A DNA stretch of 64,000 nucleotides from an uncultured Clostridia bacterium (GCA_964502145.1 CAZCVI010000029.1:9431-73430); one strand, 5' to 3'. Shown: positions 5,124-56,770, counted from the stretch's first letter. Made by a program: numbers and translations. Notes: a model not told the origin generated them from the sequence alone.

Positions 5124-5127
5124 GATC

Positions 5128-22576: not shown

Positions 22577-22641
22577 CCCCCATTTTATATCGGATTTTCT
22601 AAGGCCAGCATAAAAAAAACACTGAATTTGCATAATGTAGC

Positions 22642-22669
22642 TTGACAATTATGGGGCAAGCTATATAAT
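22642..22669 (+). promoter_or_regulatory. Sigma70-type promoter TTGACA-N16-TATAAT
   Basis: TTGACA at 22642-22647, TATAAT at 22664-22669, upstream of the GT2 gene. Confidence 0.6.
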
Positions 22670-22699
22670 ATTCTTTAACGACGAAAAACGAGGACAATT

Positions 22700-23446
22700 A
22701 TGACGACGAAAAAACTGGTGGATATCTTGTTGCCCGTTTACAATGAACAAGGTGTGCTGGAAAAGAGTGTCACCACCTTGCGGAAGTTTTTGCAGGACAA
22801 TGTAACTGATTTTGATTGGGTGATTACCATTGGCGATAACGCCTCCATTGATAAAACAATGGAAATTGCCACCGCGCTGGAAAAACAGTATGAAGATGTG
22901 CGCGTGTTTCACCTCGGACAAAAGGGACGCGGTCGTATGGTCAAGTACGCTTGGGAAAAAAGTGCAGCCGATATACTTACCTATATGGATATTGATCTTT
23001 CCACTGATTTGAACTCGTTTGCCCCCATGGTCCGTGCTATTATCGAAGGGAATGATGTCGCCATTGGTTCCCGGCAGTACAAGGGCGCAGATGTTGACCG
23101 CGGCTTCAAACGCGAAGCGATTTCCAGGGGATATATCTGGATACTCAAATTATTGCTCGGTTTTCCCTTTACCGATGCCCAGTGCGGGTTCAAAGCCGTA
23201 TCCAAACGATTCGTCAATGAATTGTTTCCCTATATCGAGGATGACGAATGGTTTTTCGATACCGAGTTGTTGTACCTCGCCCATCGCAATGGCTATAAAG
23301 TCAAAGAACTCCCGGTCCGCTGGATCGAGGACACTGATTCCCGGGTCAAAATATTGCGCACCGCGTGGCTGGATGTTAAGGGCGTATTCCGTATGCGGAA
23401 ATATGAAAAGCTGGGCAAAATTCTCGTCGCGCCACAAAAACAATGA
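22700..23446 (+). CDS. Family 2 glycosyltransferase (polyprenyl-phosphate sugar synthase / DPM1-like size and motifs)
   Basis: ILLPVYNEQ, GDNASID and YMDIDLSTD (DxD) motifs. 248 aa. Confidence 0.8.
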   Translation: MTTKKLVDILLPVYNEQGVLEKSVTTLRKFLQDNVTDFDWVITIGDNASIDKTMEIATALEKQYEDVRVFHLGQKGRGRMVKYAWEKSAADILTYMDIDLSTDLNSFAPMVRAIIEGNDVAIGSRQYKGADVDRGFKREAISRGYIWILKLLLGFPFTDAQCGFKAVSKRFVNELFPYIEDDEWFFDTELLYLAHRNGYKVKELPVRWIEDTDSRVKILRTAWLDVKGVFRMRKYEKLGKILVAPQKQ

Positions 23447-24852: not shown

Positions 24853-26477
24853 CCCTTGTTGGTTCCGGTGCTGCCGGTGTGCATTTTGCTCTGAGTGCCC
24901 TGAAAAATGGGCATCAGGTTACCATGCTGGATGTGGGTTACACTGGGCCGCAACCCGTGAACCCCGGACAATCTTTTGTCCGTTTGAAATGCAGTCTTAA
25001 AGATCCGGTCGACTATTTTCTCGGTGAAAAATTCCAGAGTGTTGTATCTCCAGAAAACGACAAGGAGATTTACGGCTTTCCCCCCAACAAACAGTATGTA
25101 TTTACTGTGCCCCCTGGTTTTAAAGAGCATGCCAGTGGTTTTGAACCCCTCTTTTCTTTTGCTGCCGGCGGTCTCGCCCAGGCATGGACTGGTGGGTCTT
25201 ATCCTTTTAATGACGAGGAATTAAAAGAGTATCCCTTTGATTATGCTGCTATCGAACCCTATTATGCCGAGATTGCCCAACGTATTGGCGTTATTGGCAC
25301 ACAGGACGATCTCTCCTCCTATTATCCGCTGCACAAGAACCTGCTCCCGCCCCTGCAATTTGATAACCACTCCCAATTACTCGTGGACCGCTATCAGAAG
25401 AAGCGTGAGAAAGTCCTGCAAAAGTATGGTATTTCCCTTGGGCGGTCCCGTGTTGCGGTATTGAGTCGCGATTTTAATGGGCGGCCTGCCTGTGATTTAT
25501 CCGGGCGCTGTATTTGGGGGTGTCCCACCAATGCCCTTTATGTTCCCGCCATTACCCTCGAACAATGCCGTGCATTTCCTGCCTTTACCTATCTGCCCAA
25601 CCATTGGGTCAGTTATTTTAAATACGATGCCCAGCAACGGATCACCCATGTGGTTGCCAGTCGCCCCGGACAGAGCACCCAGCATGAATTTCCCGTGCAA
25701 CTCTTGGTTTTGGCTGCCGGGACGTTGTCCACTTCTAAAATTTATCTTGATTCTATTTTTCAGAATACCGGCCAGATTCAGCAGTTGCATGGCTTAATGG
25801 ATAACCGTCAGGTTTTGGTGCCGTTTATCACTCCTGCCATGCTGGGCAAAGACTACAACCCCGATTCTTACCAGTACCATCAGTTGGCTATAGGATTTAA
25901 ATGGGGCGAAACCCAGGAATACATTCATGGTCAGGTCACCACCTTAAAAACGGCCCTGATGCAGCCCGTGTTTCAGACTATGCCGCTTGATTGGCACACC
26001 GCCACCTTTTTGGGCCGGAATTTGCATGCCGCGTTGGGCGTGGTGAATATAAATTATTGCGATACCCGGCGGGAGGGCAACACTATTTCCATTTCCCATC
26101 CCGATAGTGCCAACACCATCCCCTCCACCCTCGAAATCGCTTATACGCCACCAGCAGGGGAAAAGAAAAAGATGGCGGACACCATGAAACAGGTAAAAAA
26201 ATTCTTGGCCGCACTCGGTGCTATTGTGCCTCCCGGTCAAGCCCATATGCGACCCATGGGCGCCAGCGTTCATTATTCCGGCACCCTGCCCATGACCGCC
26301 CAGACCGCCCAATCGAACATATCCAACCCCCACACCCTTTCCCCCACGTGCAAGAGCCACAGTTTTGAGAATCTTTATGTGGTAGATGGAGCCGCTTTTC
26401 CTTTTTTACCCGCCAAGAACCTGACCTTCTCGCTGATGGCCAATGCCGCACGGGTCGCCGATTCCATTTCTTTGTGA
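24840..26477 (+). CDS. GMC-family FAD-dependent oxidoreductase
   Basis: VGSGAAGVHFAL (GxGxxG) and C-terminal NLYVVDGAAFPFLPAKNLTFSLMANAARVA, typical of the GMC C-terminal domain. Overlaps the upstream gene by 13 nt. Confidence 0.75.
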   Translation: MARITLVGSGAAGVHFALSALKNGHQVTMLDVGYTGPQPVNPGQSFVRLKCSLKDPVDYFLGEKFQSVVSPENDKEIYGFPPNKQYVFTVPPGFKEHASGFEPLFSFAAGGLAQAWTGGSYPFNDEELKEYPFDYAAIEPYYAEIAQRIGVIGTQDDLSSYYPLHKNLLPPLQFDNHSQLLVDRYQKKREKVLQKYGISLGRSRVAVLSRDFNGRPACDLSGRCIWGCPTNALYVPAITLEQCRAFPAFTYLPNHWVSYFKYDAQQRITHVVASRPGQSTQHEFPVQLLVLAAGTLSTSKIYLDSIFQNTGQIQQLHGLMDNRQVLVPFITPAMLGKDYNPDSYQYHQLAIGFKWGETQEYIHGQVTTLKTALMQPVFQTMPLDWHTATFLGRNLHAALGVVNINYCDTRREGNTISISHPDSANTIPSTLEIAYTPPAGEKKKMADTMKQVKKFLAALGAIVPPGQAHMRPMGASVHYSGTLPMTAQTAQSNISNPHTLSPTCKSHSFENLYVVDGAAFPFLPAKNLTFSLMANAARVADSISL

Positions 26478-26488
26478 GGTAGCCAGCT

Positions 26489-27409
26489 ATGAAGCGTAAT
26501 TTTTTCTTATTTTTGACTCTACTCGTGTTTCTTGGTTTAGGAAGGGAAGTGTTTGCCCAGGAGCTCCCCGATGCTTCCGCCAAAGAGAAAAAATACCGCA
26601 TTGAATTTGCGTTTGGTATGACCAGGAGCAATCCCCAATCCATTTACGTCCGGGATTCTGGTATTGAGCAACTCATTGGGCAATACGCCCGGTTTTATAA
26701 CCTCACCTCTTCCTTTACCGGTGCGTTCAAGCAAAGTAAACTCCTTATCCCCTTTAATCTTGCCTTCCACTATCAACTAAAAAAGAAATTATTCTTGCGA
26801 GCTGGGATTGATTATTCTTTTGGCAAAAATTCTTCCAACAAACTATTTCAGGTGGCTTGGCCCGAATTTAACGAGTCTCACGATTATCTATTAAAAGACC
26901 GAGTCTCTTATATTATGCCGCAGGTTGGTATCGGTTATCGTTTTAATTCTTTAGCTTTATATGGTGCCCTGGGTCTTGGGTTTGTCAGTTTTTCTCATAC
27001 CGAAACACTCCATTATAGCGAACCTAGTTACAGCCATAACATTGAGGAAACCTTTAAAGCCACCAGCACCGCCCCCGGTTTTATCTTTGGTGCCAAATAC
27101 CAGTTGCCTATTCCCAAAAAAATGGCCGACAAATCCTTCCGCTTGTTTGTCAAGTTAGAGGCCGTAATATTAAAAGCCAGCACTTTAAAAGGCAGTAAAA
27201 CCAAAATTGCCTCCAACTCTATTGGTGAAAACATCACCCAAACCATCACTGGAACCTTTTACCAATATGACTGGAATCCTTACGGTGGTCAGGCCATTCC
27301 GTATTGGGATGTTTGTGAAACGTTACCCGCCGCCGCCAGCATTTCTAATCCCAAGAAGATGGCCCTCAATCTCAGCGGAATCCGTTTAATGCTCGGCTTC
27401 TCTTTTTAA
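26489..27409 (+). CDS. Outer-membrane beta-barrel protein
   Basis: Signal peptide FLGLGREVFAQE, alternating-hydrophobic strands, and C-terminal LMLGFSF (terminal Phe). Confidence 0.65.
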   Translation: MKRNFFLFLTLLVFLGLGREVFAQELPDASAKEKKYRIEFAFGMTRSNPQSIYVRDSGIEQLIGQYARFYNLTSSFTGAFKQSKLLIPFNLAFHYQLKKKLFLRAGIDYSFGKNSSNKLFQVAWPEFNESHDYLLKDRVSYIMPQVGIGYRFNSLALYGALGLGFVSFSHTETLHYSEPSYSHNIEETFKATSTAPGFIFGAKYQLPIPKKMADKSFRLFVKLEAVILKASTLKGSKTKIASNSIGENITQTITGTFYQYDWNPYGGQAIPYWDVCETLPAAASISNPKKMALNLSGIRLMLGFSF

Positions 27410-27471
27410 CTTCTTTTTATATCGCCATTGTTCCCCTAAATCCCATCTTGCACAGTGATTTAAAGTTTTAA

Positions 27472-27511
27472 GGATGAATTCAGGTTTCCCTGGATTCACC
27501 ATCATTTTTTT
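27472..27511 (+). terminator. Rho-independent terminator (GGATGAATTCAGG-tttc-CCTGGATTCACC + T7)
   Basis: About 12-bp stem with one bulge and one G-U pair, followed by ATCATTTTTTT. Confidence 0.65.
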
Positions 27512-27564
27512 AAAGCACCACGGATAATTGTGGCAAGCTGGACAAAATTCAAAGGTTTTGGGAA

Positions 27565-27588
27565 GTCCAGTATGTCCAGATAGTCCAG
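27565..27588. repeat. GTCCAG x3 at 9-bp period
   Basis: GTCCAGtatGTCCAGataGTCCAGtc, read directly. Confidence 0.8.
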
Positions 27589-27703
27589 TCTTTCCTCAAA
27601 CGTGATGGTGAATTCAGATTTCGTTTCATCCTTGCTTTTTCTCCTTTTTTGTGGTAAATTAACACTGGATAGATAAATGTCATAAAGATAAGGAGGTATC
27701 CCA

Positions 27704-28303
27704 TTGCGAAAAGATGATTTAACTGCCGATGATTTCCTCTATATAGCCAAAGAACGTGATATCTGGAGCGAAGTCGAACTGATGGAACAAACGATATTTA
27801 TAAATGGCGAGAAAAGCGGGATTAAAAAAGGTCACAAGATTGGCAAAGAAGAAGGCATAGAAGAGGGAAAAATAGAGGGCGAAAAAATTGGCATTGAAAA
27901 AGGGAAAAAAGAAATGGCAAAAATGCTGAAAGAATCTGGTATTGATGCAGAACTCATCGCCCTATCCTCCGGCCTTTCAAAAGCAGAGATCGCACAACTC
28001 TATCGAGCCAGTCGCACTCCTTCTCCCATGGAAAACTTTTCCCTCCTCCCAGTAAAAACGGTTGATCAAGCTTTCGCCGACTTGTTGTCCAGTTTTTCCG
28101 CTCTGGATAAGCAGGACGAAACAGATAAATTGATGCGCCATGCAGGCATAAGTACAACGCAAGCCGGAAGTACTGCCCTGAGGCACATTCGTTCTACCCA
28201 GGATGTCTGCGAAACCCTACCCGACACCACCGGTATTTATAATCCCGTTCAATTATCCCCCAATCTCAACGGTAGCCATCTCATGCTGGGTATTTCTTTT
28301 TAA
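27704..28303 (+). pseudogene. Mosaic ORF assembled from fragments: Rpn/transposase-like C-terminal tail, FADLL-motif fragment (paralogous to the 29228 gene) and a duplicated OMP C-terminus
   Basis: TTG start after AAGGAGG. GIEEGKIEGEKIGIEKGKKEMAKMLKESGIDAELIALSSGLSKAEIAQL resembles the tail of Rpn-family proteins. FADLLSSFSALDKQDETDKLMRHAGIS matches FADLLASFSENDTQGDVAQFMDKAGIT. DVCETLPDTTGIYNPVQLSPNLNGSHLMLGISF matches DVCETLPAAASISNPKKMALNLSGIRLMLGFSF. Confidence 0.55.
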
Positions 28304-28321
28304 CCCGAGAACAACTGCACC

Positions 28322-28972
28322 ATGAACGCCAACGACTCCAAACAAACACGGATTGATCAAGCTTATTTGCAAATCAAAAAAATTTACCAGAACCAAGGGC
28401 AACTATACTCCTTTTATAATTTTTACCGCCACTTAACCTGCCCCATCCGGCGAATCTTCCACCTCATTCCAGAGGGGCAGGATTATATCGATGTGGGCTG
28501 TGGATTTGGATTTATTTCCCTGTGGACCGCCCTCGTTTTTCCCAGTGCCACTGTTCTTGGCATGGATGTTGTCAAGTCCAGAATTGATTTTGCCTCTAAA
28601 ATGACCCGTGATATCCAGAATCTTCGTTTTATAGTGAAAGATGTGCGTACCGATCCCATTGATCACGCTGAGGTCGTCCTGCTCATTGACCTGTTTCACC
28701 ATGTCCCCTTTGAGAACCAATTCCCTTTCCTGCAACAACTCCTTGAAAAAAAACCAAAAACCGTGGTGTTTAAAGATATTGATCGCACCCCCTGGTGGAA
28801 GTTCAGGGTCAATTATGTCCAAGATTTCCTCTTTACCCGCGAAGCCACCTATTGCCGCCATAAAGATGAATACATGAATTTTTTCCGTCAGAATGGCTAT
28901 CAAGTGGAATACTTTGATCTCAAAAAAGGGTACATGTATTCCCACTACCTCATCCGCGCCACCAAAGCCTAG
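28322..28972 (+). CDS. Class I SAM-dependent methyltransferase
   Basis: Motif I YIDVGCGFGFISL, then VLGMDV and LLIDLFHH. Confidence 0.75.
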   Translation: MNANDSKQTRIDQAYLQIKKIYQNQGQLYSFYNFYRHLTCPIRRIFHLIPEGQDYIDVGCGFGFISLWTALVFPSATVLGMDVVKSRIDFASKMTRDIQNLRFIVKDVRTDPIDHAEVVLLIDLFHHVPFENQFPFLQQLLEKKPKTVVFKDIDRTPWWKFRVNYVQDFLFTREATYCRHKDEYMNFFRQNGYQVEYFDLKKGYMYSHYLIRATKA

Positions 28973-33607: not shown

Positions 33608-35299
33608 ATGAATTTAAAAACCTTTTTGACTCTAATATTTGCTTTTCTGATTGGCACCTCGATTCTGTTCGGTGTGGCAGCGGATGAAGCAAAAGCTCTA
33701 AAATGTCCCGGTAAAGTAAACGTGTTGGTATCCACGGTGGCCCCCACTTCTTTCGTCCAATACAATACCCTAAACGTCGCCCTGGTCCCAGCCAAATTCC
33801 AGTCATTGGTGAGCACGGTTCCTTGTGCCATCGCGAAAATTCAAACTGCCGCGGGCGCCGAGGTGAAAGCTGGCGATGTTATCCTGGAACTGGATAGCAA
33901 AGACATTAAAGAAACAATCGCGAAAGCCAATCTTGATATAAAAAAATGGCAGAAAGTCCTTTCAAAAAAATCCACTAAAAAAGCCGCCCAAAAAGAAGCG
34001 GCAGAGAACCTGAAAAACTCCCAGGAACTCTTGGCGCAGAAACAAGCGCAATTAAAAAATGGCATCTTCACCGCCACTTTTGACGGTTTTGTCGAAGTGA
34101 TGAATGTAAATGAAGGCGATCACATCAGCGACGGTTTCCTCATGGCTACTGTCGTGGATGCCACCCAGGTTGTCGCCGCCATCCCTGCCACTGAAGCTGA
34201 CAAGCTCAATGCCGGCCAGACTGTGTCCGTAGAAATTCCAGAATTGGGAAAAAAGCTGGCAGGCACCGTGCAAAAAAGTGATCAAGCCTATCTCCTGATC
34301 GACAACTCCGGTAAACAGATTAAAAAAGGAATGCATGCCGTTTTTAGTGTGGCTGTTAAAAATCATGAAAACGTGCTGGTTCTTTCGGACTCTCAAATCC
34401 TCAAGGATAGTACCGGATACTATATTTATACAGTCAACGGCAAACTGGCTAGAAAAACCAGTATTACTATCGGTCCAGTCACCCACAATATGGTCTTGGT
34501 ATCGGAAGGCATCGCCAATGGCGACGAAGTGGTTAGCGCTGAAATTCTCGACCCCAAAAAAGGACTGTTGAAAGAGAAAATAACCTGCCTCGAAGATAAT
34601 AAAAAGATTGTGATCATGGAAAAACATGCCACTGCCAACCAGTATATAGCGCGGAAAAAAGCAGCCAAACCCGCTGCCGTTGTTCCTGAAATTGCACCCC
34701 CAGTTAAAGCCAAACCCGTGGCAGCAAAACCAGAAGTTAAAAAAGAAGTTAAGAAAGAAAAGAAAAACGTGTATCCTGTTGCTCCCCGGAAAGTTTCCAA
34801 GTTCGCTATCGGTGCCACTATCAACTACTCCAAAATGAATACCAATTTTGACGATGTGTATGGTCGTCTCACTGGTTTTGGCCTGGACCTCTCCTATACT
34901 CTTACCAAAGCATTGGATATCTGGTTAAGTGCCAGTTATGCTACCAAAAAAAGCACGTTGGAAGATTTCCCCGAAACCCCAATGGAATTTACCCTTCTCC
35001 CTGTTTCTCTTGATCTCCGTTATTTCCTCAAAAGAGGGCAGAAGCTGGATATTTATGTCGGTACTGGTTTTACCTACTATTCCTTTGAAGATATCTCCCC
35101 CTTGAGCGAAGTGAAGAGCAGTGCTATTGGCATCAATCTGGTGGGGGGTACCTATTACCATCTCTCCCGCCACCTCTCCTTGCACGCGGCCTTCCGTTGG
35201 AGTACTGCCAAGAAAGATATCGTGGCCGAACCTGCGCCGGATTTCAAACTGGATCTCAGCGGTATTGATCTACTGCTGGGAGTTTCGTATGGATTCTAA
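33608..35299 (+). CDS. Fusion of a periplasmic adaptor (HlyD/RND membrane-fusion-protein-like) region to a C-terminal outer-membrane beta-barrel domain via a Lys/Pro/Ala linker
   Basis: Signal peptide. Lipoyl-like AGAEVKAGDVILELD and FDGFVEVMNVNEGDHISDG flank a coiled coil. Beta-barrel and MP-like VLVLSDSQILKDSTGYYIYTVNGKLARKTSITIG. Linker AAKPAAVVPEIAPPVKAKPVAAKPEVKKEVKKEKK. OMP-like end LLLGVSYGF. Confidence 0.65.
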   Translation: MNLKTFLTLIFAFLIGTSILFGVAADEAKALKCPGKVNVLVSTVAPTSFVQYNTLNVALVPAKFQSLVSTVPCAIAKIQTAAGAEVKAGDVILELDSKDIKETIAKANLDIKKWQKVLSKKSTKKAAQKEAAENLKNSQELLAQKQAQLKNGIFTATFDGFVEVMNVNEGDHISDGFLMATVVDATQVVAAIPATEADKLNAGQTVSVEIPELGKKLAGTVQKSDQAYLLIDNSGKQIKKGMHAVFSVAVKNHENVLVLSDSQILKDSTGYYIYTVNGKLARKTSITIGPVTHNMVLVSEGIANGDEVVSAEILDPKKGLLKEKITCLEDNKKIVIMEKHATANQYIARKKAAKPAAVVPEIAPPVKAKPVAAKPEVKKEVKKEKKNVYPVAPRKVSKFAIGATINYSKMNTNFDDVYGRLTGFGLDLSYTLTKALDIWLSASYATKKSTLEDFPETPMEFTLLPVSLDLRYFLKRGQKLDIYVGTGFTYYSFEDISPLSEVKSSAIGINLVGGTYYHLSRHLSLHAAFRWSTAKKDIVAEPAPDFKLDLSGIDLLLGVSYGF

Positions 35300-37689: not shown

Positions 37690-39261
37690 TTACACCCACA
37701 CCATGAAGATTTGTTTTTCCCCTATAATGAGTGTCTCATTCGCGCCTATTTTATTGCTTTGGCGGCGGGAATCGTAAATAATGAGAAAGCCAAGGTTTTG
37801 GTTCTGGCGGTCCAGATAATCCGTTAGTTGCTTCAAGCCTTTCCGGTGCGATTCCTCGCCATACCACTTTTTTAATTCAATAATGTATTTTTGGCTCCCG
37901 TAAGTCACCGCGATGTCCAACCTTTTTTCCTCGGAAATTTCTACTTCCTTGAAATCATAGCCTTTGCCATTAATAATGGGTCTTAAGAAGGTCAGGAAGA
38001 GCAATCTACCGTTTCGTTCCAGAAACACCAGGTCTTTTTCAGAATACTGCTCCTTCAGAAAAGTTTGGAAACGTAGCAGCACTTCCCTCATATTCAGTGC
38101 GCCGCCATTTTCCAAGAAATGGTCCCTGAAATTATAATTCCCCATGTTTGAGGAGGTTTTCACCTTGGAGGCCATATAATTGTAAATACGCTGCTCATAT
38201 AATCGGTTGTGAATCCGTACCCGGCCATTTTCATCGCGAAAAACGCCATGGGTCACCCCTTTTTCGATAAGCGGATTATCTAAATTGTACCCGATGTCTT
38301 CCCCTTCCAACACTATGCGGTAAACCATGTCGTAGAGGGACGGATTGTTTTCGAGGTTTTTGATTAAGCTTTGAAAATTGGTATTATCCTCTTTTAACAA
38401 GTTATTGGCTGCCGTATCAATATCCACTAATTCCCAGCGCTCCAAAGGGTGGATGTCTTCATCTATAATCTTGCACAACCGGGAAACGAGGAAGGGATAA
38501 CCGGAAGTTAAATAGTGCAATTTCGCAGCGGCTTCCTTAATAGTGAGCTGGATGTTGTTTTGGGTCAGAAAATCATGGAGTAAACTTTCGATTTCACTGC
38601 TGCTGAGGCTCAGGTCGCCGGGAAAATTAATCGCAATGTTCCAAGGGCTGTTGTATTGTTGTTCAGCATCCGCTCTGACTTTAAGTTTTAAATTTTTCAC
38701 ATCATGGACGCCTGCCAGTATCACTGAAAAAAAGGTGGAATCCTGGCCTTTATTGCGTAACAGGTATTTGGCCCGCAACATCCCCAAAAAAACAAGGAAC
38801 AACTGGTTGTTGCTGGATTTATCCACTTCATCAATCGCAACGACAATCTTTTGACCAGTGGCGGTTATTTCAGTAATCACTTTGGAAAGGTCTTTGAGGG
38901 AGTGGGTTGTTTTAATTTGCTGTGAAAGGTAATGGGATAATGGGTGCTCTGTATGTTTAAACTTTTCCAGTAGCATTTCAATAAAAGTGGGCGCAAATAG
39001 TTCTTCACTGGCAAAAATGTTATCAGAAATTCCTTCGAAGCTGATATCAAAGACCAGATAGCCCATTTTTTCCAATTCAATTCCCAGCAGGTACAACAAG
39101 GTTGTTTTGCCGTATTGTCGTGGGCGGTTGATGGTGAAGTACTTGCCTTTTTCCACCAGTTTAATCAAACTGGCGATCTTGGTAGACCGATCGGCCATAT
39201 AATGCAAATGAGGTACACACAAGCCAGCATCGTTAAATTCTTTTCTGCTTTCGTTTATCAT
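37690..39261 (-). CDS. Predicted AAA-ATPase with a C-terminal PD-(D/E)XK nuclease-like domain (the AAA-ATPase_like + PDDEXK_9 architecture)
   Basis: FNDAGLCVPHLHYM, YFTINRPRQYGKTTLL (P-loop), VVAIDEVDK (Walker B). C-terminus RLDIAVTYGSQKYIIELKKW. Confidence 0.7.
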   Translation of the reverse strand: MINESRKEFNDAGLCVPHLHYMADRSTKIASLIKLVEKGKYFTINRPRQYGKTTLLYLLGIELEKMGYLVFDISFEGISDNIFASEELFAPTFIEMLLEKFKHTEHPLSHYLSQQIKTTHSLKDLSKVITEITATGQKIVVAIDEVDKSSNNQLFLVFLGMLRAKYLLRNKGQDSTFFSVILAGVHDVKNLKLKVRADAEQQYNSPWNIAINFPGDLSLSSSEIESLLHDFLTQNNIQLTIKEAAAKLHYLTSGYPFLVSRLCKIIDEDIHPLERWELVDIDTAANNLLKEDNTNFQSLIKNLENNPSLYDMVYRIVLEGEDIGYNLDNPLIEKGVTHGVFRDENGRVRIHNRLYEQRIYNYMASKVKTSSNMGNYNFRDHFLENGGALNMREVLLRFQTFLKEQYSEKDLVFLERNGRLLFLTFLRPIINGKGYDFKEVEISEEKRLDIAVTYGSQKYIIELKKWYGEESHRKGLKQLTDYLDRQNQNLGFLIIYDSRRQSNKIGANETLIIGEKQIFMVWV

Positions 39262-39519: not shown

Positions 39520-39562
39520 AAAAAATTGGAAAGATAGATGCCGCTTAAACACCTATCTTTCC
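39520..39562 (-). terminator. Rho-independent terminator of the precursor-peptide gene (GGAAAGATAG-N15-CTATCTTTCC then T-run on the minus strand)
   Basis: Stems at 39528-39537 and 39553-39562. AAAAAATT at 39520-39527 on the plus strand gives a U-tract on the minus strand. Confidence 0.6.
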
Positions 39563-39616: not shown

Positions 39617-39868
39617 CTAATCAATGGGAACAGTAGTCGGATGCGGGTGGACGAAATCATAACCAGGAGAGTGTGAATGAGTTGCCTCATTTGCACTATA
39701 ATTCGCTGTAGTCGATGTGCCACCCGGTTGATTTTCATAGATACATGCACATGCACAACCAAGGTTTGTGCAAACCCCACCTGCTATCGCAGCCCAGATG
39801 TCATTCATCTCGATACCGGAAATAACAGTTTCGTTTTTGACATTCATTAAACTTAATCTTCGTTTCAT
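39617..39868 (-). CDS. RiPP precursor peptide, GG-Bacteroidales-type leader (ends ...AAIAGG) with a Cys-rich core
   Basis: GGAGG RBS. Leader MKRRLSLMNVKNETVISGIEMNDIWAAIAGG. Core VCTNLGCACACIYENQPGG... with a His/Pro-rich tail. Lies directly downstream of the pseudo-rSAM and rSAM genes. Confidence 0.75.
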   Translation of the reverse strand: MKRRLSLMNVKNETVISGIEMNDIWAAIAGGVCTNLGCACACIYENQPGGTSTTANYSANEATHSHSPGYDFVHPHPTTVPID

Positions 39869-39907
39869 GAAGACCTCCTTCTATTTAAACTTGGGTAAGA
39901 TACCCAG

Positions 39908-41203
39908 TTATTTGCCATTATAGTTAAGTACTGTGCATAGGTCATTCCTTCTGAGAACAAACTCATAATTGGATATCTCCTCACATATCACATTGTATAA
40001 ACACCCCTTACACGGCGATAAATTGGGTCGCACTCTTAACCAGTTCCTCCCATGATACAACTCCTTGAAAATGAGATCATGGATTATATGGTTATGGATA
40101 TTTCCCAGTTTGGGAGTGTTGAGATTGGAATAGACATCCCCATTGCTCATTATGGTGAGTTTCCCGAAGAAATTCGAGTTTACTACCATCCTGGCAACAA
40201 TCTCCCGTTGTGACGGCCTGGCAGCGGTTATGTCCTCGGGATGAATAAACACGGCATCTTTAAAGAAATCCATATTACTTCCATTATAATAGGGCTTTAA
40301 CAAAAAGTCTCTCAATCCAAAGCGACCGGGAATCGAATCACAATAATTCAGCTCATCCATACCGGAAATTAAAAATGTTAGCTTTACATTTCCCTGCTCC
40401 CCGGCAAAACGGACCGCTGTTTCTAGGTTCTGGTCCTGAATCGGAAACGTAACGAGCAAATTAATCCAAGATTTGCCTTCGTTATCCTTAATCAAACCCA
40501 ATTTTTCCAGGTTATTTAATGCATCGAGATAATGGAGATGATAGGCTTTTACCCGGGAAGTATTGTCAAAGAACACAACCATATCTTCAAACCGTGAATG
40601 ATCAAGTATATTCCCACCGATTATATTGATTGATGCAAGACCACTATTTTCCAGGGAGTTACAAAGCATTTTGATGGTATCGAGGGATAATTCCTGTGGA
40701 GTTCCCCGCCTCTCGAAATAAGGAAATAATACCTGTTTATAAAGCAATGGCGGCAACGGTTCATAAACACTCGAATGGCTATGGGAACTGTTGTTTATAT
40801 AGATGGAGACTTCCCTTAAATAAGAAAGGATGGCTTTACCTTCCAGGTTATGGTCTCTCCGTTTTTGCTTTATATCTGCCTGTAAATTGATAATGGATTT
40901 GAGTTGAATGGGTTTTCCGTAAGAAAGCACGACATCTTCCATATCTCCCATAAACCGGGTCTTAATCTCCTGTACGAAGCAACTGATCCGGGGATGATTA
41001 AGTTCCTTCCGAGTTATAGGGATGACAAGCAGGTTTTCCGGACGCAACATTTTTTTTAAAATGTGTAGAATATCCGGCTCATCGGTATATTCGAGTTTAG
41101 AACCGGAAAGGGTATTGTAAAGCAAGGCTTTATTTCCTATTATAGAAACATGTACATACGGTTCTATCCACAGCCACCATTTTCTATCAATATCGTTACT
41201 CAA
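39908..41203 (-). CDS. Pseudo-radical-SAM protein (rSAM homolog lacking CxxxCxxC), as in GG-Bacteroidales peptide systems
   Basis: No CxxxCxxC motif. NIIGGNILDHSRFEDMVVFF aligns with GFYGGEPLMNIEFIKEIVNF of the neighbouring rSAM. C-terminal PCKGCLYNVICEE. 8-nt overlap with the upstream gene. Confidence 0.65.
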   Translation of the reverse strand: MSNDIDRKWWLWIEPYVHVSIIGNKALLYNTLSGSKLEYTDEPDILHILKKMLRPENLLVIPITRKELNHPRISCFVQEIKTRFMGDMEDVVLSYGKPIQLKSIINLQADIKQKRRDHNLEGKAILSYLREVSIYINNSSHSHSSVYEPLPPLLYKQVLFPYFERRGTPQELSLDTIKMLCNSLENSGLASINIIGGNILDHSRFEDMVVFFDNTSRVKAYHLHYLDALNNLEKLGLIKDNEGKSWINLLVTFPIQDQNLETAVRFAGEQGNVKLTFLISGMDELNYCDSIPGRFGLRDFLLKPYYNGSNMDFFKDAVFIHPEDITAARPSQREIVARMVVNSNFFGKLTIMSNGDVYSNLNTPKLGNIHNHIIHDLIFKELYHGRNWLRVRPNLSPCKGCLYNVICEEISNYEFVLRRNDLCTVLNYNGK

Positions 41204-42731
41204 CGGTCACATCCTCCATAATTTTGGTATAGACTTTGGGCTCACGCTCGAAAGCAGAGAGAACCTGAGCAATAAATTCCTGGAAATCCGAATAATTTCG
41301 GTAATACTTACACGTAATGCTGCCCTCTTTTTGAATTAAATTAAATATACACGTAGGACATGCTTCACGGTCATAACAATATCTGCATTGCTCCCCGAGC
41401 TGTTTAAAGTAATCATTGTATTTTGTGGAAATGGCAGTAAAATCGATATCGACCTTTTCACGCGTTACTGTTCCGAGGTAAAATTGATGGGCGATATTCT
41501 CGCAGGGTAGCAACTTCCCACTGGCTGAGACAAAAATTCGTTTTCCAAAAGGCAAACACGTTCCTGTGGGATATACCCTGTGAATTTTTTTGGTGGACAG
41601 TAAATGATTATAATTCTCATAAACGAAACCGCTGTATTTTAACAAAAATAAACTCATCATCTGTACGTCTGGATGCTTCAAGAACAGTTCTTTTTGGATT
41701 CCGAGGTCGTCTTCGAGTTCTCCGTATATGTTCTCTTTAATGGTGGAATACATTTCCCAGAAGTTATTTTGCTCGGCATCTTTGATTCCCACATTTTTTA
41801 ATTGGCCCACCCTCGGGATTTTGTCATACTTTTCCTTAAAAAAATCGAGGAGCTTTACTACACTGTTCTTCGTATGCACCACTGCATTAAAATGGACGCG
41901 CTCTCGAAAATAATCAGGGTATTTTTCCCGGAAGGCTTCAATATTTGCAATAATATGAGGATACGCGGGTTCACCGTTCTTCAAAACCCGGAAACAATTA
42001 TGCTCTTCATTGCCATCGAGACTCAATAATAAATTGAAACTATTCTCGACAAGGAAATCCATATGCTTCGATAAAAGCAATGCATTTGTGGTCATGGAAA
42101 ATTGGAAACGGTTGTGTTCGAGCTTGAGGGTTTTAGCAAAGTTGACGATCTCTTTGATGAACTCGATATTCATCAACGGCTCTCCCCCATAAAATCCTAA
42201 ATAAATGACCCTGCCGTGCGAAATATTCAAGGGTGAATTCCAATACAGGAGTAAATACTCGATAAATTTTTTAGCTGCTTCAATATCCAGGTCCTTTTCA
42301 GTTCGTTCGTCATAGTAGCCATAAAAACGTCCATAACCGCAATATTCGCATTTGAGATTGCAACGTTCGGTGACTTCAAAAGTCACTTGCATGGAATTGG
42401 CGAGTGTGTATTCTACCGTTTCAGGTTTAATGGGGGCAGGAGTTTCAGGAGCGTCCACAAAAGGTTCAAAGTAACCGCTATTCTTTAAGAACAAATATTT
42501 CTGGAAATAATATTCGATTTCCTGCTTTGGAACTTTTCCGTATTCCTCTATCTCGATGAATTCGTCATCAGTGTTATCCAACTTTTGACGGATATCGATT
42601 CCTTTTTCAACCATATCGAGGATGTAGTAAAGAAGATAGTTACATAATAGGTTACTATTCTTATTCCTATCAAAAACAAAACGGTTTCCGAGATTGGTTT
42701 TTGAGAGTATAAATGATTTGAGTGGGTTCAT
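41196..42731 (-). CDS. Radical SAM peptide maturase with a SPASM-like C-terminus (GG-Bacteroidales-family type)
   Basis: CNLKCEYC (CxxxCxxC), YGGEPLMN, and C-terminal CRYCYDREACPTCIFN. GGGAG RBS. Confidence 0.8.
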   Translation of the reverse strand: MNPLKSFILSKTNLGNRFVFDRNKNSNLLCNYLLYYILDMVEKGIDIRQKLDNTDDEFIEIEEYGKVPKQEIEYYFQKYLFLKNSGYFEPFVDAPETPAPIKPETVEYTLANSMQVTFEVTERCNLKCEYCGYGRFYGYYDERTEKDLDIEAAKKFIEYLLLYWNSPLNISHGRVIYLGFYGGEPLMNIEFIKEIVNFAKTLKLEHNRFQFSMTTNALLLSKHMDFLVENSFNLLLSLDGNEEHNCFRVLKNGEPAYPHIIANIEAFREKYPDYFRERVHFNAVVHTKNSVVKLLDFFKEKYDKIPRVGQLKNVGIKDAEQNNFWEMYSTIKENIYGELEDDLGIQKELFLKHPDVQMMSLFLLKYSGFVYENYNHLLSTKKIHRVYPTGTCLPFGKRIFVSASGKLLPCENIAHQFYLGTVTREKVDIDFTAISTKYNDYFKQLGEQCRYCYDREACPTCIFNLIQKEGSITCKYYRNYSDFQEFIAQVLSAFEREPKVYTKIMEDVTVE

Positions 42732-42750: not shown

Positions 42751-42773
42751 GTAGATTATTGTAGATTATTGTA
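42751..42773. repeat. GTAGATTATT x2 (+GTA) 10-bp direct repeat
   Basis: Read directly at 42751-42760 and 42761-42770, about 20 nt upstream of the minus-strand rSAM start. Confidence 0.8.
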
Positions 42774-43007
42774 AATCCAATTAAGCCATTTTTGAATCAT
42801 TTGGTTGCTATCTGTCCCAGTCAGCTCATTTTGTGGAAGAAATATATATTAGACCATAAAATAGGGGGGATGTCAATGAAAAATAAAAAATATCGGCAAT
42901 TCTCATTTTGATTTATTAAAAATGATGAATGGCAAAGCGTTAAAAAAAACCGGCTCCTTCGAATTGGCATGAATATTTTACACTCCCCCCCTTTTTTTTT
43001 AGAGAAA

Positions 43008-43170: not shown

Positions 43171-44763
43171 ATGGCTTGCTTTATGAAATGGTTGATTTTC
43201 CCCTGTATGGGCTTGTTACTTCTCTTCTGCTGCACTGGGGACGGGGTAACTGAAGAGAAAAAGGTGCGGGCTTACTTGACGACAATGGCTTGGTACCCGG
43301 ACTCTGCGCCTGAATTAAAAGAGCTGCTGGATGGGTTTTTTAAGAAAACGAAAGCACACGGTTACACGGGAAAAGTAGTGGGGTTGATTTCGCCACACGC
43401 GGGACTTTCGCACTCGGGGCTGTGCGCGGCGAGTGGCTTTAAACAATTGGCGGGAAGGAAGGATATTGAACGGGTTATTCTGCTGGGTGTGTCTCATCGG
43501 AGCGGATTTTATGGGGCGGCGGTAGGAGATTTTACGCACGAAAGCACGCCGCTGGGTTTAATTGAGGTGGATACGGAGATCACGGGGAAACTGGCGAAAG
43601 AAAGACTGTTCAAAAAAGATAATGCACTGATGCAAAAGGAACACTCACTGGAAAATGTACTGCCCTTTCTACAATACATGATGAATGAACAAAAAAACAC
43701 GGGCTATAAAATCGTGTCGATCCTGTTCAGCCACATGACAGAAAAAGATGTGCAAAAAGCGGCGGTCATTATTAATAAATATGTGACGGATAAAACCCTG
43801 CTGATTGCAAGCTCAGATTTCACGCACTATGGGAGCAACTACGGCTATGTACCTTTTGTGAAAGATATCAAAAACAACCTGACGGCACTGGATACAGGGA
43901 TGATCAAGACGATTACACAACTGGACCTGAAAGGCTACAGGAACTACATGGAAAAAACGGGGATCACGATGTGTGGGTTTGTGCCGGTGGGGGTTTTGCT
44001 GCATATTCTGGCTGGGAAAGGCTACACGGGCACGGTAATGGATTATTACAAATCGGCGGACGGCACGAACGACTACTCCTTGAGCGTGAGTTACGCGGCC
44101 ATTGTTTTTTACGATAAAAATGCGAAGAAAAAAAATAGGGAGAATAAAATGACAACAGATAAGAGGGATAAAACGGAAAATACGGAAACGAATCCATTAA
44201 AACTTACGAAAACAGACGAGGAGGTATTACTGAAACTGGCCCGCCAAACGCTGGAGGATTATTTCGCTGGGAAAAAGGACTCGCTGGGCGATATTGAAAG
44301 GCAATACGGGTTCTCAAAAGGATTGCAGGAAAACGCGGGGGTCTTTGTGACGCTACGGGAAGAAGGCGACCTGCGGGGCTGCATTGGTGCGATTGTGGGC
44401 CGGGAACCTCTCTGGCAAGGAGTGCGCAGCAATGCGCTGAATGCGGCACTACACGATCCACGATTCAACCGGGTGGAAAAGAACGAATTGAAAAAGATTG
44501 CTATTGAAATCTCGGTGATGACGCCGCTTCAAGAAATCACAGATTATAAAACTATTCGCGTGGGCATAGACGGGGTGATTATTCGCAAAGGAAACTATCA
44601 AGCAGTGTTCCTGCCACAAGTGGCGACTGAAACGGGCTGGAATTTAGACGAATTCCTGGGCCATTTGTGCCAAAAAGCGGGACTACCCATGAATGCATAT
44701 CAAGCGGAAGGAATGGAATTTCTGATTTTTCAAGCATTGGTGTTCGGGGAAAAGGAAGAATAA
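43171..44763 (+). CDS. Fused AmmeMemoRadiSam system protein B (Memo-like) + protein A (AMMECR1) with an N-terminal hydrophobic signal-like segment
   Basis: N-terminus WLIFPCMGLLLLFCC. Memo motifs AWYPDS and GLISPHAGLSHSG. AMMECR1 motif GVFVTLREEGDLRGCIGAIVG. Confidence 0.8.
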   Translation: MACFMKWLIFPCMGLLLLFCCTGDGVTEEKKVRAYLTTMAWYPDSAPELKELLDGFFKKTKAHGYTGKVVGLISPHAGLSHSGLCAASGFKQLAGRKDIERVILLGVSHRSGFYGAAVGDFTHESTPLGLIEVDTEITGKLAKERLFKKDNALMQKEHSLENVLPFLQYMMNEQKNTGYKIVSILFSHMTEKDVQKAAVIINKYVTDKTLLIASSDFTHYGSNYGYVPFVKDIKNNLTALDTGMIKTITQLDLKGYRNYMEKTGITMCGFVPVGVLLHILAGKGYTGTVMDYYKSADGTNDYSLSVSYAAIVFYDKNAKKKNRENKMTTDKRDKTENTETNPLKLTKTDEEVLLKLARQTLEDYFAGKKDSLGDIERQYGFSKGLQENAGVFVTLREEGDLRGCIGAIVGREPLWQGVRSNALNAALHDPRFNRVEKNELKKIAIEISVMTPLQEITDYKTIRVGIDGVIIRKGNYQAVFLPQVATETGWNLDEFLGHLCQKAGLPMNAYQAEGMEFLIFQALVFGEKEE

Positions 44764-45746
44764 TGACTGAAACAAAAATTACCCGCCGCTCATTTAACAA
44801 AAGGATGGTACTGGCAACGGCGGGTCTTGCGGGAGTTTTAAGTGTTCCCTATCTGGTTATGCCAACAGGAGGGAAAAGCCGGGTGATTATTGCGCGCTCG
44901 GAAATGTTAAAACGCATGCATAATCAACTGGCAAAAGAACGGGTCGCGCCGTTTCTGGACCGGGCTGTACAGAAATTAACGGGACAAAATTCGCGCGGGG
45001 CAGCATGGAAATCTTTGGTTTCACCAGGGGAACGGGTGGGGATTAAATTGAGTTGTTTGCCTGGACCGGGGTTGTCTTCGTCTTATGGTCTGGTGATGGC
45101 GATTGTAGATGGATTAATGGCGGGAGGAGTGAAAGAGAACAATATTCTGCTCTGGGAACGAACGGATAGAGAATTGGTGCGGGCAGGTTTTGCGCTGAGT
45201 GGTTCGGGGTTACGAGTGCAAGGCACGGATGCTTATGACGGGGATGGGTATGGGGATAATATTGAGTTTGCATACAGTGTGGGCACACGATTCAGTCGTA
45301 TTATGGAGGAAGTGGACGCGCTAATTAATGTGCCGGTACTAAAAGACCACGATTTGTCAGGGGTGTCGATCAGTATGAAGAATTTTTACGGGGCGATTTA
45401 CAATCCGAACAAATTCCACCGCAACAATTGCAACCCGTATATCGCGGAACTAAACTCGCATAGCTTAATCAAGGACAAATTGCGTTTGATTGTCTGCGAT
45501 GGGTCGCGTATCCAGGTTAATAATGGCCCGGCGTATTTCCCACGGTATGCGGTGGAGTACGGGGCGATCCTGGTAAGCCAAGATCCAGTGGCGCTTGATT
45601 TTGCGGGCTGGCAAATCATTGAAAAAGAACGGCAAAGACTGCAATTACCGACTCTAAAAGCAGTGGAACGAGAACCGAAATACATCCTCACAGCAGAAAC
45701 ATTAAAATTAGGCACAACACGCGGGGAATGTGTGTACATTGAATAA
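44763..45746 (+). CDS. DUF362-family protein with a twin-arginine (Tat) signal
   Basis: The ATG overlaps the upstream TAA (TAATG). MTETKITRRSFNKRMVLATAGLAGVL. DUF362-like VPVLKDHDLSGVSISMKNFYG. The ORF track start at 44667 is rejected. Confidence 0.7.
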   Translation: MTETKITRRSFNKRMVLATAGLAGVLSVPYLVMPTGGKSRVIIARSEMLKRMHNQLAKERVAPFLDRAVQKLTGQNSRGAAWKSLVSPGERVGIKLSCLPGPGLSSSYGLVMAIVDGLMAGGVKENNILLWERTDRELVRAGFALSGSGLRVQGTDAYDGDGYGDNIEFAYSVGTRFSRIMEEVDALINVPVLKDHDLSGVSISMKNFYGAIYNPNKFHRNNCNPYIAELNSHSLIKDKLRLIVCDGSRIQVNNGPAYFPRYAVEYGAILVSQDPVALDFAGWQIIEKERQRLQLPTLKAVEREPKYILTAETLKLGTTRGECVYIE

Positions 45747-45754
45747 GGATCACC

Positions 45755-46963
45755 ATGAAAACAACTATTTCATCGTCCAGTAAGTCGAATAAATCCAGCT
45801 TGTCCACATCGTCCACATCGTCCATATCGTCCACACTGTCCACATCTTCCACTGGCTTCACGCGGCGCTCATTTATTAAGGCGAGTGCGTTAACGGCCTG
45901 CTCACTGTGCGCGGGATTTATGCCGGTATTGGGGGGTGGGAAACAAGAACAGAGCGCATTTATTCGTGAAGCGCGCTATTATGAAAAACAAACAGAGAAA
46001 CGCTTGACCTGTAAATTATGCCCGCACGAATGCCGGGTAGCGGATTTGGAACGAGGCACCTGCGGGGTACGGGAAAATAATGGGGGCACGTATTACACGC
46101 ATGTTTATGGGAACCCATGTTCAATGCACATCGATCCGATTGAAAAAAAACCGCTCTTTCATTATTTTCCGACAACCCAAGCGCTGTCAATAGGAACAGC
46201 GGGATGTAATTTCGCATGCAAATTCTGCCAGAACTGGGAAATCTCGCAAAAACGCCCGGAACAGGTGCAGAGTCAAAAAGTGTACCCGGCGGAACTTATT
46301 AAGCTGGCACAAGAGAACAAATGCAAGACGGTGGCACACACATACACGGAACCGGTTATCTTTTTTGAGTATATGCTGGACTGTGCGATCGAAGGGAAAA
46401 AACGGGGGGTGCGGAACGTGATGATCTCGAACGGTTTTATCCAGGAAAAACCAATGCGGGAAGTGTGCCAGTACCTGGGAGCGGTAAAAATTGATTTGAA
46501 AGCGTTTACGGAGAAGTTCTATAGCACGATGTGCGAGGGAAAATTAAAACCGGTGCTGGATACGTTACTGGTATTAAAAGAGGTGGGCATCTGGTTTGAA
46601 TTGGTGGTATTGGTGATTCCAACGCTCAATGATAGCCAGGCGGAGTTAACGGGGATGACGCGGTGGATCGTGAAAGAACTGGGCGGGAATGTACCGCTGC
46701 ATTTTTCACGTTATTACCCGACATTCATGTTAAAAAACATCCCACCAACACCACCGGAAACATTACACAGGGCGCGACGGATTGCACTGGATAACGGGGT
46801 GAAATTTGTTTATATTGGCAACATGGTCTCAGATGCAGAGAACACGTTCTGCCCAGCCTGCGGTAAAGTGCTTATTGAACGACTGCGCTACTCGGTAGAT
46901 ATTGTGGGAATGAAAAAAAATACATGCAAATACTGCGGGGAAACGATCCCGGGGGTCTTTTAA
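45755..46963 (+). CDS. AmmeMemoRadiSam system radical SAM enzyme with a Ser/Thr-rich N-terminus and a Tat-like motif
   Basis: CNFACKFCQNW (CxxxCxxC) and an upstream CKLCPHEC cluster. TRRSFIKASALTACSLCAG near the N-terminus. Confidence 0.8.
   Translation: MKTTISSSSKSNKSSLSTSSTSSISSTLSTSSTGFTRRSFIKASALTACSLCAGFMPVLGGGKQEQSAFIREARYYEKQTEKRLTCKLCPHECRVADLERGTCGVRENNGGTYYTHVYGNPCSMHIDPIEKKPLFHYFPTTQALSIGTAGCNFACKFCQNWEISQKRPEQVQSQKVYPAELIKLAQENKCKTVAHTYTEPVIFFEYMLDCAIEGKKRGVRNVMISNGFIQEKPMREVCQYLGAVKIDLKAFTEKFYSTMCEGKLKPVLDTLLVLKEVGIWFELVVLVIPTLNDSQAELTGMTRWIVKELGGNVPLHFSRYYPTFMLKNIPPTPPETLHRARRIALDNGVKFVYIGNMVSDAENTFCPACGKVLIERLRYSVDIVGMKKNTCKYCGETIPGVF
45802..45855 (+). repeat. 9-bp word repeat GTCCACATC x5-6 inside the 5' coding region (encodes STSSTSSISSTLSTSS)
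   Basis: GTCCACATC GTCCACATC GTCCATATC GTCCACACT GTCCACATC TTCCACTGG. The same word is found at 14044-14061. Confidence 0.85.
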
Positions 46964-46987: not shown

Positions 46988-47875
46988 TCAATCATTGTGA
47001 TCGGGCTGCATGCTTTCGTCTTCCTCATTGAAATTATAATCGGGAACATTTGGAACCTGATCCTTCTCATTGTCGGGCATGTTTTGGGCATCATGAATTT
47101 TTTCGCTAGTTTCTGCACTGGTATCATGCGAATCATCGTCTGCATCATCATCTGAATCGTCTTGGGGTTCGTCTTCTATTATTTCGTCATCGTCTCTATC
47201 GTAGATGATGGAATCTTCCTCGTTATCCAAGAACTCCTCTTCCTCGTCTTCGAGTTCATAGGAGATGATGGCTTCTTCTTCATCGGCGACATTGCCATTG
47301 ACGTATTCAAAGGTTTTCCCGACGGTAAAATCGTGGCGATTGCCCAGTCCCTGTCCTTTGATCACAACGGTCTTAAATTTATCTTTGTTGCGATCTTTAC
47401 CTTTATCTTTGCCGCGATCCTTGCCGCGATCTTTACCACGATCCTTGCCGCGATCCTTGCCTCTATCTTTCCCTCTATTTTTATCTTTGCCGCGCTCTTT
47501 GCCTTTGTTTTTATCTTTGTCTATATCGGTGTCTTGTGCCTGGTTGTGATCTTTTTCTTTTTCCGCGGCTTTGGCTTTTTCGGCTTCTATGGCTTTTTCA
47601 GCTTCTATGGCTTTTTCTTTCTCTTTTTCAAGAAGTTTCTTTTTATCTAGGCCACCCTCTTTAAGGGATCTCTCGTAGTCTCTTCTTTCCTGGGTATGGC
47701 CCAAGACATAGGCTTTAATTTTTTGCGAGACATCAAAGGCCGGAGTTTTTACGGAAACAAAATCCCCGGTGGTGAGGGTAATGATGGTGGTTCTATCCAT
47801 GGTACTTTCTATTGATTTAATGGCGTCGGTATTCAAGAGAATTTCAACACCGTCGGTTCGTATCACTCGGATCAT
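46988..47875 (-). CDS. FlbD/SwrD-like N-terminal domain fused to a long basic (KDRG)n repeat and an acidic tail
   Basis: MIRVIRTDGVEILLNTDAIKSIESTMDRTTIITLTTGDFVSVKTP matches the FlbD pattern (M..L.R.NG....LN...I..IE....T.I.L..G....V). This is followed by GKDRGKDRGKDRGKDRGKDRGK and a D/E-rich C-terminus. Confidence 0.6.
   Translation of the reverse strand: MIRVIRTDGVEILLNTDAIKSIESTMDRTTIITLTTGDFVSVKTPAFDVSQKIKAYVLGHTQERRDYERSLKEGGLDKKKLLEKEKEKAIEAEKAIEAEKAKAAEKEKDHNQAQDTDIDKDKNKGKERGKDKNRGKDRGKDRGKDRGKDRGKDRGKDKGKDRNKDKFKTVVIKGQGLGNRHDFTVGKTFEYVNGNVADEEEAIISYELEDEEEEFLDNEEDSIIYDRDDDEIIEDEPQDDSDDDADDDSHDTSAETSEKIHDAQNMPDNEKDQVPNVPDYNFNEEDESMQPDHND
47381..47520 (-). repeat. Tandem 12-bp coding repeat (plus-strand unit GCGATCCTTGCC; KDRG on the minus strand), degenerate at both edges
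   Basis: gccgcgatccttgccgcgatctttaccacgatccttgccgcgatccttgcc, read directly. Confidence 0.8.

Positions 47876-54124: not shown

Positions 54125-56766
<2,642 letters not shown>

Positions 56767-56770
<4 letters not shown>

Follow-up and report, generated by a model that had tools for sequence, protein, structure and literature searches.

The 'GG-Bacteroidales' system of ribosomally made peptides that carry post-translational modifications (RiPPs), with its radical S-adenosylmethionine (SAM) maturase (TIGR04148), precursor (TIGR04149) and 'pseudo-rSAM' partner (TIGR04150), is said to go back to the work of Haft and Basu in 2011. Descriptions of it are found in two papers (PMC4573289, PMC10352776); according to a 2023 survey, pseudo-rSAMs have no assigned function, and pseudo-rSAM Bacteroidales clusters with GG-like leaders and no peptidase-containing C39-ABC exporter (PCAT) have been noted earlier (PMC10352776). 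The literature that we searched, which did not cover all journals, has only bioinformatic descriptions of the TIGR04148/TIGR04150 system and no report of its chemistry, in agreement with a preliminary description of the locus studied here. This locus lies in a stretch of 64,000 nucleotides from an uncultured Clostridia bacterium (GCA_964502145.1, CAZCVI010000029.1:9431-73430; hereafter the window), where we found a genuine minus-strand operon at positions 39617..42731, a compact and apparently intact set of three co-directional genes for a modified peptide. They encode a radical SAM/SPASM maturase, a partner protein and a precursor. Judged by its family scores, the operon is a member of the TIGR04148/TIGR04150 system, and by analogy we think it rather probable that it carries out a CteB-like thioether maturation with a non-radical partner.

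The locus shares with the GG-Bacteroidales system its enzyme families, the adjacency and coupling of the genes, a bacteriocin-like leader and the family core signature. It differs in a precursor that TIGR04149 does not recognise, with a leader that begins MKR[RK]LxL and ends in (A/L)-G-x and with an extra upstream cysteine (C33), in an N-terminal extension of the maturase that most Bacteroidales homologs do not match, and in the lack, by tblastn, of propeller, PCAT, HlyD, GLPGLI and glycosyltransferase genes in the window. The match to the GG-Bacteroidales trio that had been put forward in the preliminary description therefore holds for the two enzymes, both over their cut-offs, but not for the precursor, which misses both TIGR04149 and PF14406. 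All that had been said of the gene arrangement (three genes on the minus strand, an 8-nt overlap and an 83-aa precursor with its own ribosome-binding site and terminator) was confirmed in the sequence, as was the peptide sequence given there.

Maturase and partner

The maturase, which contains TERCNLKCEYCGYG, scored 476.4 bits against the NCBIfam hidden Markov model (HMM) TIGR04148 (GG_samocin_CFB; E=9e-143, residues 102-508, curated cut-off 300). All runner-up models stayed under their own cut-offs: CcpM (TIGR04068) with 194.9 bits, the lachnocin radical SAM model with 151, RumMC with 127 (cut-off 720), PapB with 106 (cut-off 340), the SCIFF maturase with 94 (cut-off 425) and the anaerobic sulfatase maturase (anSME) with only 73. 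The last of these had been named earlier as an example of another family into which the enzyme might fall, and the models place it in TIGR04148 and not elsewhere. Models of cyclophane-forming enzymes (YhhB, FxsB, AmcB) were much lower, at 44-67 bits. CcpM resembles the maturase in that the match covers residues 17-468, including the N-terminal domain, and in its Cys-rich peptide substrates, but the maturase is not a member of that family, because its score is well under the cut-off of 500. Pfam gave 47 bits for Radical_SAM and a weak SPASM match (15.7 bits, below the cut-off of 21.5). The CX3CX2C motif is C124/C128/C131 and the seven SPASM cysteines are C392, C410, C449, C452, C458, C461 and C474; all ten are kept at 96-100% among 91 homologs.

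The AlphaFold (AF2) model of the maturase (pLDDT 80.7) had CteB as its top match in the Protein Data Bank (PDB) (5WGG, E=5e-18, 522 columns), which is also the nearest solved structure by sequence (E=5e-19), while the next fold matches, anSME, ChlB and TigE, ranged from ~1e-11 to 1e-12. The N-terminal extension of ~100 aa (residues 1-101) falls outside the TIGR04148 model and has a predicted fold β-β-β-α-α-β-β-α; by its topology and the whole-chain structural alignment, this domain (~1-100) would be similar to a RiPP recognition element (RRE). Modelled in this way, the maturase would have the layout of CteB, the SCIFF (thermocellin) ranthipeptide maturase, with an RRE-like N-domain, a radical SAM barrel and a SPASM domain, and like CteB it would act on a Cys-rich substrate. 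Unlike CteB and the sactipeptide maturases SkfB, RumMC and PapB, the window system has a paralog without SAM cluster as an obligatory neighbour, and its thioether formation is proposed by analogy. Most Bacteroidales homologs align to residues ~101-511 only, and the full-length matches were Omnitrophota, Aminicenantes, 'Clostridia' metagenome-assembled genome (MAG) and Desulfobacterales homologs. The closest maturase relatives are 56-60% identical, the best match among GTDB representatives is 50% identical, and the nearest named relatives for the operon genes are Omnitrophota and Aminicenantes MAGs, not Bacteroidales.

The partner scored 341.4 bits against TIGR04150 (E=7e-102, residues 10-425, curated cut-off 250). 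As the preliminary description had it, this is a radical SAM homolog lacking the Cys triad: in an alignment of 77 sequences, the triad columns hold S140/S144/Y147, the column of the fourth Cys holds P161, and the GGE motif is replaced by GGN (G196-G197-N198). The profile-profile alignment of both proteins with hhalign, although weak (probability 52%, E=1.4e-4), is in register, with C124/C128/C131 opposite S140/S144/Y147 and the maturase GGE opposite the partner GGN. Four C-terminal cysteines (C398, C401, C407, C423) are retained, 97-100% conserved among the 77 partners, and likely form an auxiliary Fe-S site. The AF2 model from 34 sequences (pLDDT 90.2, pTM 0.87) has three domains (β-rich/α at the N-terminus, then a barrel, then a Cys domain at the C-terminus), and its best PDB matches, all of them RiPP maturases, run along the whole chain (SuiB, E=1e-9; CteB and SkfB, both ~3e-6). 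The likeness to SuiB, the streptide maturase, takes in all three domains, of which the N-terminal one is RRE-like (~470 columns); however, the partner is only 12-13% identical to it, has no SAM-cluster triad, has four conserved C-terminal Cys and aligns with a TM-score of ~0.45. Taken together, alignment and model indicate a radical SAM paralog that is unable to bind the SAM cluster and keeps the fold of a maturase.

Such a loss is not a trait of the entire TIGR04150-homologous group, since an intact CX3CX2C with the fourth Cys was found in 42 of the 77 'pseudo-rSAM' partners, some of which match Pfam Radical_SAM (partners with an intact triad occur, for instance, in L008 and L014); the triad is lost, with varied residue patterns, in the other 35. 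A quick neighbour-joining tree of the partners, for which the triad region was masked, requires no fewer than 10 changes of triad status; with shuffled labels the average is 25.5 and the lowest value 19. We estimate from the tree that the motif has been lost at least 10 times. The window partner clusters in one of the 'lost' lineages, together with those of the related loci L001, L003, L004, L006, L019 and L046. The partner gene accompanies the maturase gene in 84 of 86 loci. The core signature described below occurs beside both partner types (17/42 loci with triad-intact and 19/33 with triad-lost partners), which suggests that the process acting on the conserved core can do without radical chemistry of the partner. 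Triad status was compared with accessory genes, maturase length and core type with no robust result (propeller p=0.03, uncorrected, 8 tests).

Precursor peptide, core signature and operon layout

The precursor seemed an orphan in a word-seeded search, which found the peptide itself alone, a view that was overturned by synteny and an exhaustive HMMER search. Among 1.84 billion representatives, the latter gave 26 matches at E<1e-3, the nearest of them 56% identical (E=1.5e-16), and the phmmer matches include canonical GG-leader peptides. The neighbourhoods of the closest maturase relatives hold precursor homologs at the same position, and a custom HMM built from four members of the clade, searched in 85 maturase loci from species-representative genomes, found ~50 small open reading frames (ORFs) beside maturases at E<1e-2, canonical Bacteroidales precursors included. 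The ORF that had been taken for the precursor is thus kept beside homologous maturases and, because homologous peptides adjoin homologous maturases, is not a chance ORF. Three large proteins (P0135, P0150 and P0153) matched the core 5-11 times, lack CxCxC, are compositionally biased and were discarded as spurious. A metagenome scan with the precursor alignment, using over-strict back-translated patterns, gave only 2 confirmed loci, and no second precursor copy was found in the window.

The curated models TIGR04149 (cut-off 25 bits) and PF14406 gave no match to the window precursor even at E<=10. In a control with TIGR04149, four canonical precursors reached 33.8-44 bits and the close-clade peptides 8-20.3 bits. 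We therefore classify the window precursor, on these comparisons, as a homolog that the curated model misses and as part of a divergent subfamily.

The four cysteines of the peptide (C33, C38, C40 and C42) form a Cx4CxCxC motif within 10 residues, which the preliminary description had singled out as a special feature. This did not hold, as CxCxC is the invariant start of a core signature that runs through the ~50 precursors beside homologous maturases, C-x-C-[GAS]-C-x-[YFW]-x3-G-G-S-S-T-x2-N-x2-A-N-x3-G-x2-S-P-G; C38, C40 and C42 are family-wide and only C33 is specific to the clade. The window peptide fits every conserved column of this core (C38, C40, C42, Y44, G49-G50, T51-S52-T53, N56, A59-N60 and S67-P68-G69), with the segments C38-A-C40-A-C42-I-Y44 and S67-P68-G69-Y70, of which SPG[YF] is conserved. 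C38, C40 and C42 rank among the most conserved core positions, above the aromatic one. The GGSST, N, AN and SPG positions had been missed before, along with the absent propeller and the fact that more than half of the family's partners retain the Cys triad.

The family consensus of the leader is KKLKLxxLxxxxLxxxEMxxxxGG. In the clade of the window precursor, the conserved leader residues are K2, L5, L7, E13, M21 and the end, (A/L)-G-x. The leader was said to end in GG, and G30-G31 is indeed present in the window, but the aligned end in close relatives is AGG, AGS, AGA, AGL or LGG; in these alignments a strict GG does not appear to be the conserved leader end of the clade.

The features of the operon are collected in Table 1. 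The ACAATAATCT repeat sits just upstream of the maturase gene, yields two TACAAT hexamers 10 bp apart and covers part of the -10 element, and is a candidate operator or regulator binding site. The start codon of the partner overlaps the maturase stop codon by 8 nt, an overlap that is identical in the relatives L001, L003 and L004, and through it the partner is predicted to be translationally coupled to the maturase. The second promoter-like site could drive a separate precursor transcript; both promoter-like sites are consensus matches alone. The hairpin lies 55 nt past the precursor stop codon and marks the end of the operon.

Table 1. Features of the operon and its flanks, listed from the 5' to the 3' side of the minus strand (window coordinates).
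Feature	Position	Strand	Basis or remark
Promoter-like region, 5' of maturase	42753..42796	minus	TTCAAA-17-TACAAT, consensus scan 9/12
Tandem 10-bp direct repeat ACAATAATCT x2 + partial third unit	42772..42753	minus	read from sequence
Radical SAM/SPASM maturase, 511 aa	41196..42731	minus	TIGR04148
Partner 'pseudo-rSAM', 431 aa, TTG start	39908..41203	minus	TIGR04150
Promoter-like site in partner 3' end, just 5' of precursor	39917..39945	minus	ATGACC-17-TATAAT, scan 10/12
Ribosome-binding site AAGGAGG, 5 nt before precursor ATG	39874..39880	minus	read from sequence
Precursor ORF, 83 aa	39617..39868	minus	stop codon 39617..39619
Leader, residues 1-31: MKRRLSLMNVKNETVISGIEMNDIWAAIAGG	39776..39868	minus	alignments with relatives
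Core/follower, residues 32-83	39620..39775	minus	profile built on 50 precursor homologs
Intrinsic-terminator-like hairpin, 15-bp stem, 5-nt loop, T-run	39528..39562	minus	terminator scan

Accessory genes, maturation and competing explanations

The preliminary description had stressed the lack of a leader peptidase or exporter. None was found in the 64 kb: no window ORF has an LSGGQ signature, tblastn with 36 PCAT sequences from relatives gave no match, and the Pfam annotation of the large ORFs of the window has no C39 peptidase. The exporter was also not found in ~5 kb past the 3' edge. The absence itself is ordinary, since among the 34 well-flanked relatives (at least 5 kb on each side) PCAT is missing nearby in 21 and present in 13, HlyD is present in 11, and both PCAT and propeller are missing in 12. 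By clustering of neighbour ORFs, the accessory genes that recur in relatives are, besides PCAT and HlyD, a DUF5128-type 6-bladed β-propeller (two sequence types), a GLPGLI-family protein, a CarboxypepD_reg outer-membrane protein, a GT4 glycosyltransferase and a thioredoxin-like protein, none of which was found in the window by tblastn. Thioredoxin/ResA-like genes occur in 3 related loci, and L004 has a C39_2-like gene in the vicinity of its precursor.

Of 6 close relatives, 4 have the β-propeller next to their precursor (L003:8785-12334; L004:3300-4499; L006:5771-6988; L091:1-1155). These propellers are ~400 aa long and DUF5128/NHL-like, with one per precursor (L003 has two precursor-propeller pairs), and may act in immunity, in processing or as receptors. 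Those of L004 and L091 are 52% identical, and L091 holds the nearest precursor homolog; the idea that L091 continues the partner gene of L001 on its 3' side was dropped, as its upstream ORF is a propeller and not a partner. L094 has the order maturase-partner-precursor of the window, also without a propeller. In this locus (L094:3666-9123), two unrelated GG-leader peptides and a LanC-like protein come after the maturase (49% identical to that of the window), the partner and a precursor of the clade type, an arrangement that recalls Bacteroidales clusters of radical SAM and LanC-like genes (PMC10352776).

Under the CteB-like reading, the maturase, the partner or both would bind the precursor leader with their RRE-like N-terminal domains, and the maturase would cleave SAM at its C124/C128/C131 cluster. 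The thiols of C38, C40, C42 and probably C33 would then be joined to carbons of downstream residues, for which T51-S52-T53, N56 and N60, past the G49-G50 turn, are candidate acceptors, to give a thioether-bridged peptide with a nested, hairpin-like shape. With an S/S/Y triad and GGN in place of GGE, the partner is, as far as alignment and model show, unable to generate a 5'-deoxyadenosyl radical; most likely it would be a non-radical helper that presents the peptide or acts as its scaffold, or else an Fe-S redox partner. A peptidase/transporter whose gene lies outside the window would remove the leader near A29-G30-G31 and export the peptide. A bolder version, which we regard as doubtful, is that the invariant CxCxC-aromatic-x3-GGSST-x2-N-x2-AN core directs a crosslink topology or bond type new to sacti- and ranthipeptides, with a conserved non-radical role for the partner and the three-gene operon, without propeller and exporter, as the smallest unit in nature that suffices for this chemistry. 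Such a conserved role, be it peptide presentation or an Fe-S-dependent step, would explain at least 10 independent losses of the SAM cluster in a gene that is always kept.

Several observations weigh against the CteB-like reading. Its thioether step is an analogy. In its predicted structure the maturase is also similar to anSME (E=1.5e-12) and to ChlB, a cyclophane-forming enzyme (E=5.5e-12). The RRE-like assignment comes from predicted topology and the whole-chain structural alignment, no match to RRE or PqqD sequence models was found, and the TM-scores are only ~0.45. The precursor escapes both curated models, an aromatic residue [YFW] is conserved just after CxCxC, and maturation and export cannot be completed from the window, because it has no peptidase, exporter or propeller. 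Part of this would fit an operon of the same family with a different chemistry, such as cyclophane C-C links (at Y44 or at the H/Y of HSPGY), epimerisation or Cys oxidation, in which the cysteines might be metal or disulfide ligands and not crosslink donors. The fold matches to ChlB and anSME are nearly as good as those to other SPASM enzymes, SPG[YF] is conserved like the aromatic position, thioredoxin/ResA-like genes occur at related loci, and the family has no chemistry on record (PMC10352776). However, CteB is the top match both by sequence and by fold, and the thioether step has indirect support in that the nearest structure and the secondary HMMs with the highest scores belong to thioether formers or to maturases of Cys-rich peptides, whereas the cyclophane models score far lower; in addition, the three cysteines are conserved more strongly than the aromatic residue. 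We thus consider a non-thioether chemistry unlikely, although it has to be taken seriously.

The missing genes could be explained in two other ways, to both of which we give far less credit. One is that the operon is a decaying remnant that has lost its propeller, its exporter/peptidase and the catalytic cluster of its partner and makes no product; the propeller of 4/6 close-clade genomes is missing from all 64 kb, PCAT is absent from the window, and the partner triad is gone. It seems very improbable to us, as the three ORFs are intact, all family-conserved residues are present in maturase, partner and peptide, and the ribosome-binding site, coupling overlap and terminator are preserved. A whole lineage (window, L001, L003, L004, L006) shares the triad loss, implying retention over a long time under selection, 12 of the 34 well-flanked relatives lack both PCAT and propeller too, and L094 keeps the gene order without a propeller. 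The other is that the product is no exported bacteriocin but stays in the cell or periplasm, for instance in signalling or metal binding, with a leader that is not processed by a C39 transporter. The failure to find an exporter within 64 kb or ~5 kb beyond the 3' edge, the lack of a strict double-glycine at the leader end of the clade and the long follower after the conserved core (from C42 to residue 83) would agree with it. Still, the leader is homologous to bacteriocin-like leaders of the TIGR04149 type, with scores graded from 44 to 8 bits, PCAT and HlyD occur in 13 and 11 of the 34 relatives, and the L004 precursor has a C39_2-like gene close by, so that we give this explanation very little weight.

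Neighbouring genes and significance

Just 3' of the precursor sits an AAA_35/AAA-ATPase-like gene (37690..39261, minus strand), the product of which is 49.5% identical over 523 aa to that of a gene abutting the partner in an Aminicenantes MAG (L008:9851-11425); the maturases of L008 and the window are only 43% identical. In L013:17-4603 and L001:2619-5465, the system is flanked by weaker relatives of this ATPase or by different ATPases of the STAND-like kind. A PADLOC scan of the gene gave no match, and its position could reflect either a real association or a multi-copy family that lies there by chance. On the plus strand, a conflict/defence-like row (185..11487) consists of genes for TPR+CHAT (185-3520), SIR2_2+TIR (3747-5123), nSTAND1+TPR+CHAT (5128-9021) and caspase-domain (9043-11487) proteins, with PADLOC matches to TPR, TIR-type and caspase models. 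A second, unrelated radical SAM gene with CX3CX2C (21479-22552, plus strand) is followed by genes for a GT2 glycosyltransferase and for NAD-epimerase-like, GMC-oxidoreductase-like and methyltransferase proteins, and this row (21479..28972) may be a cluster for the modification of small molecules or glycolipids. Divergent from the operon is an AmmeMemoRadiSam-type set (43171..46963, plus strand) with a fused Memo+AMMECR1 gene (43171-44763), DUF362 (44667-45746) and a radical SAM gene (45755-46963). Among PKD/BNR surface proteins, the single ORF 33608..35299 (plus strand) has HlyD-type membrane-fusion domains and, at its C-terminus, an outer-membrane beta-barrel domain, and is not homologous to the HlyD genes of related RiPP clusters (tblastn, no match). 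The gene at 46988..47875 (minus strand) codes for 295 aa with an N-terminal FlbD flagellar domain, a Lys/Gly/Asp-rich repeat (GKDRGKDR…) and a long acidic tail, and multihaem/NrfD genes are also near the operon. An AlaRS gene lies at 54125..56770. Searches for rRNA, tRNA and Rfam families gave no match in the window. Judged by the FlbD and multihaem/NrfD genes and by the nearest named relatives, which belong to other phyla, the host is not recognisably Bacteroidales.

Standard annotation pipelines would name both enzymes and miss only the peptide, and in other respects this is an ordinary finding for the genome. The enzyme families were already known; the worth of the locus is that of a minimal unit open to testing, together with what was seen across the family of the core signature and of the repeated loss of the partner triad. 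The TIGR04148/TIGR04150 system is abundant in gut Bacteroidales, and we found it also in uncultured Omnitrophota, Aminicenantes and other anaerobes. Maturase, partner and precursor together form a compact unit of 3.1 kb that is suited to co-expression testing, for which the family core signature supplies specific candidate donor and acceptor residues. The repeated triad loss sharpens the question of which role of the partner survives the loss of radical chemistry.

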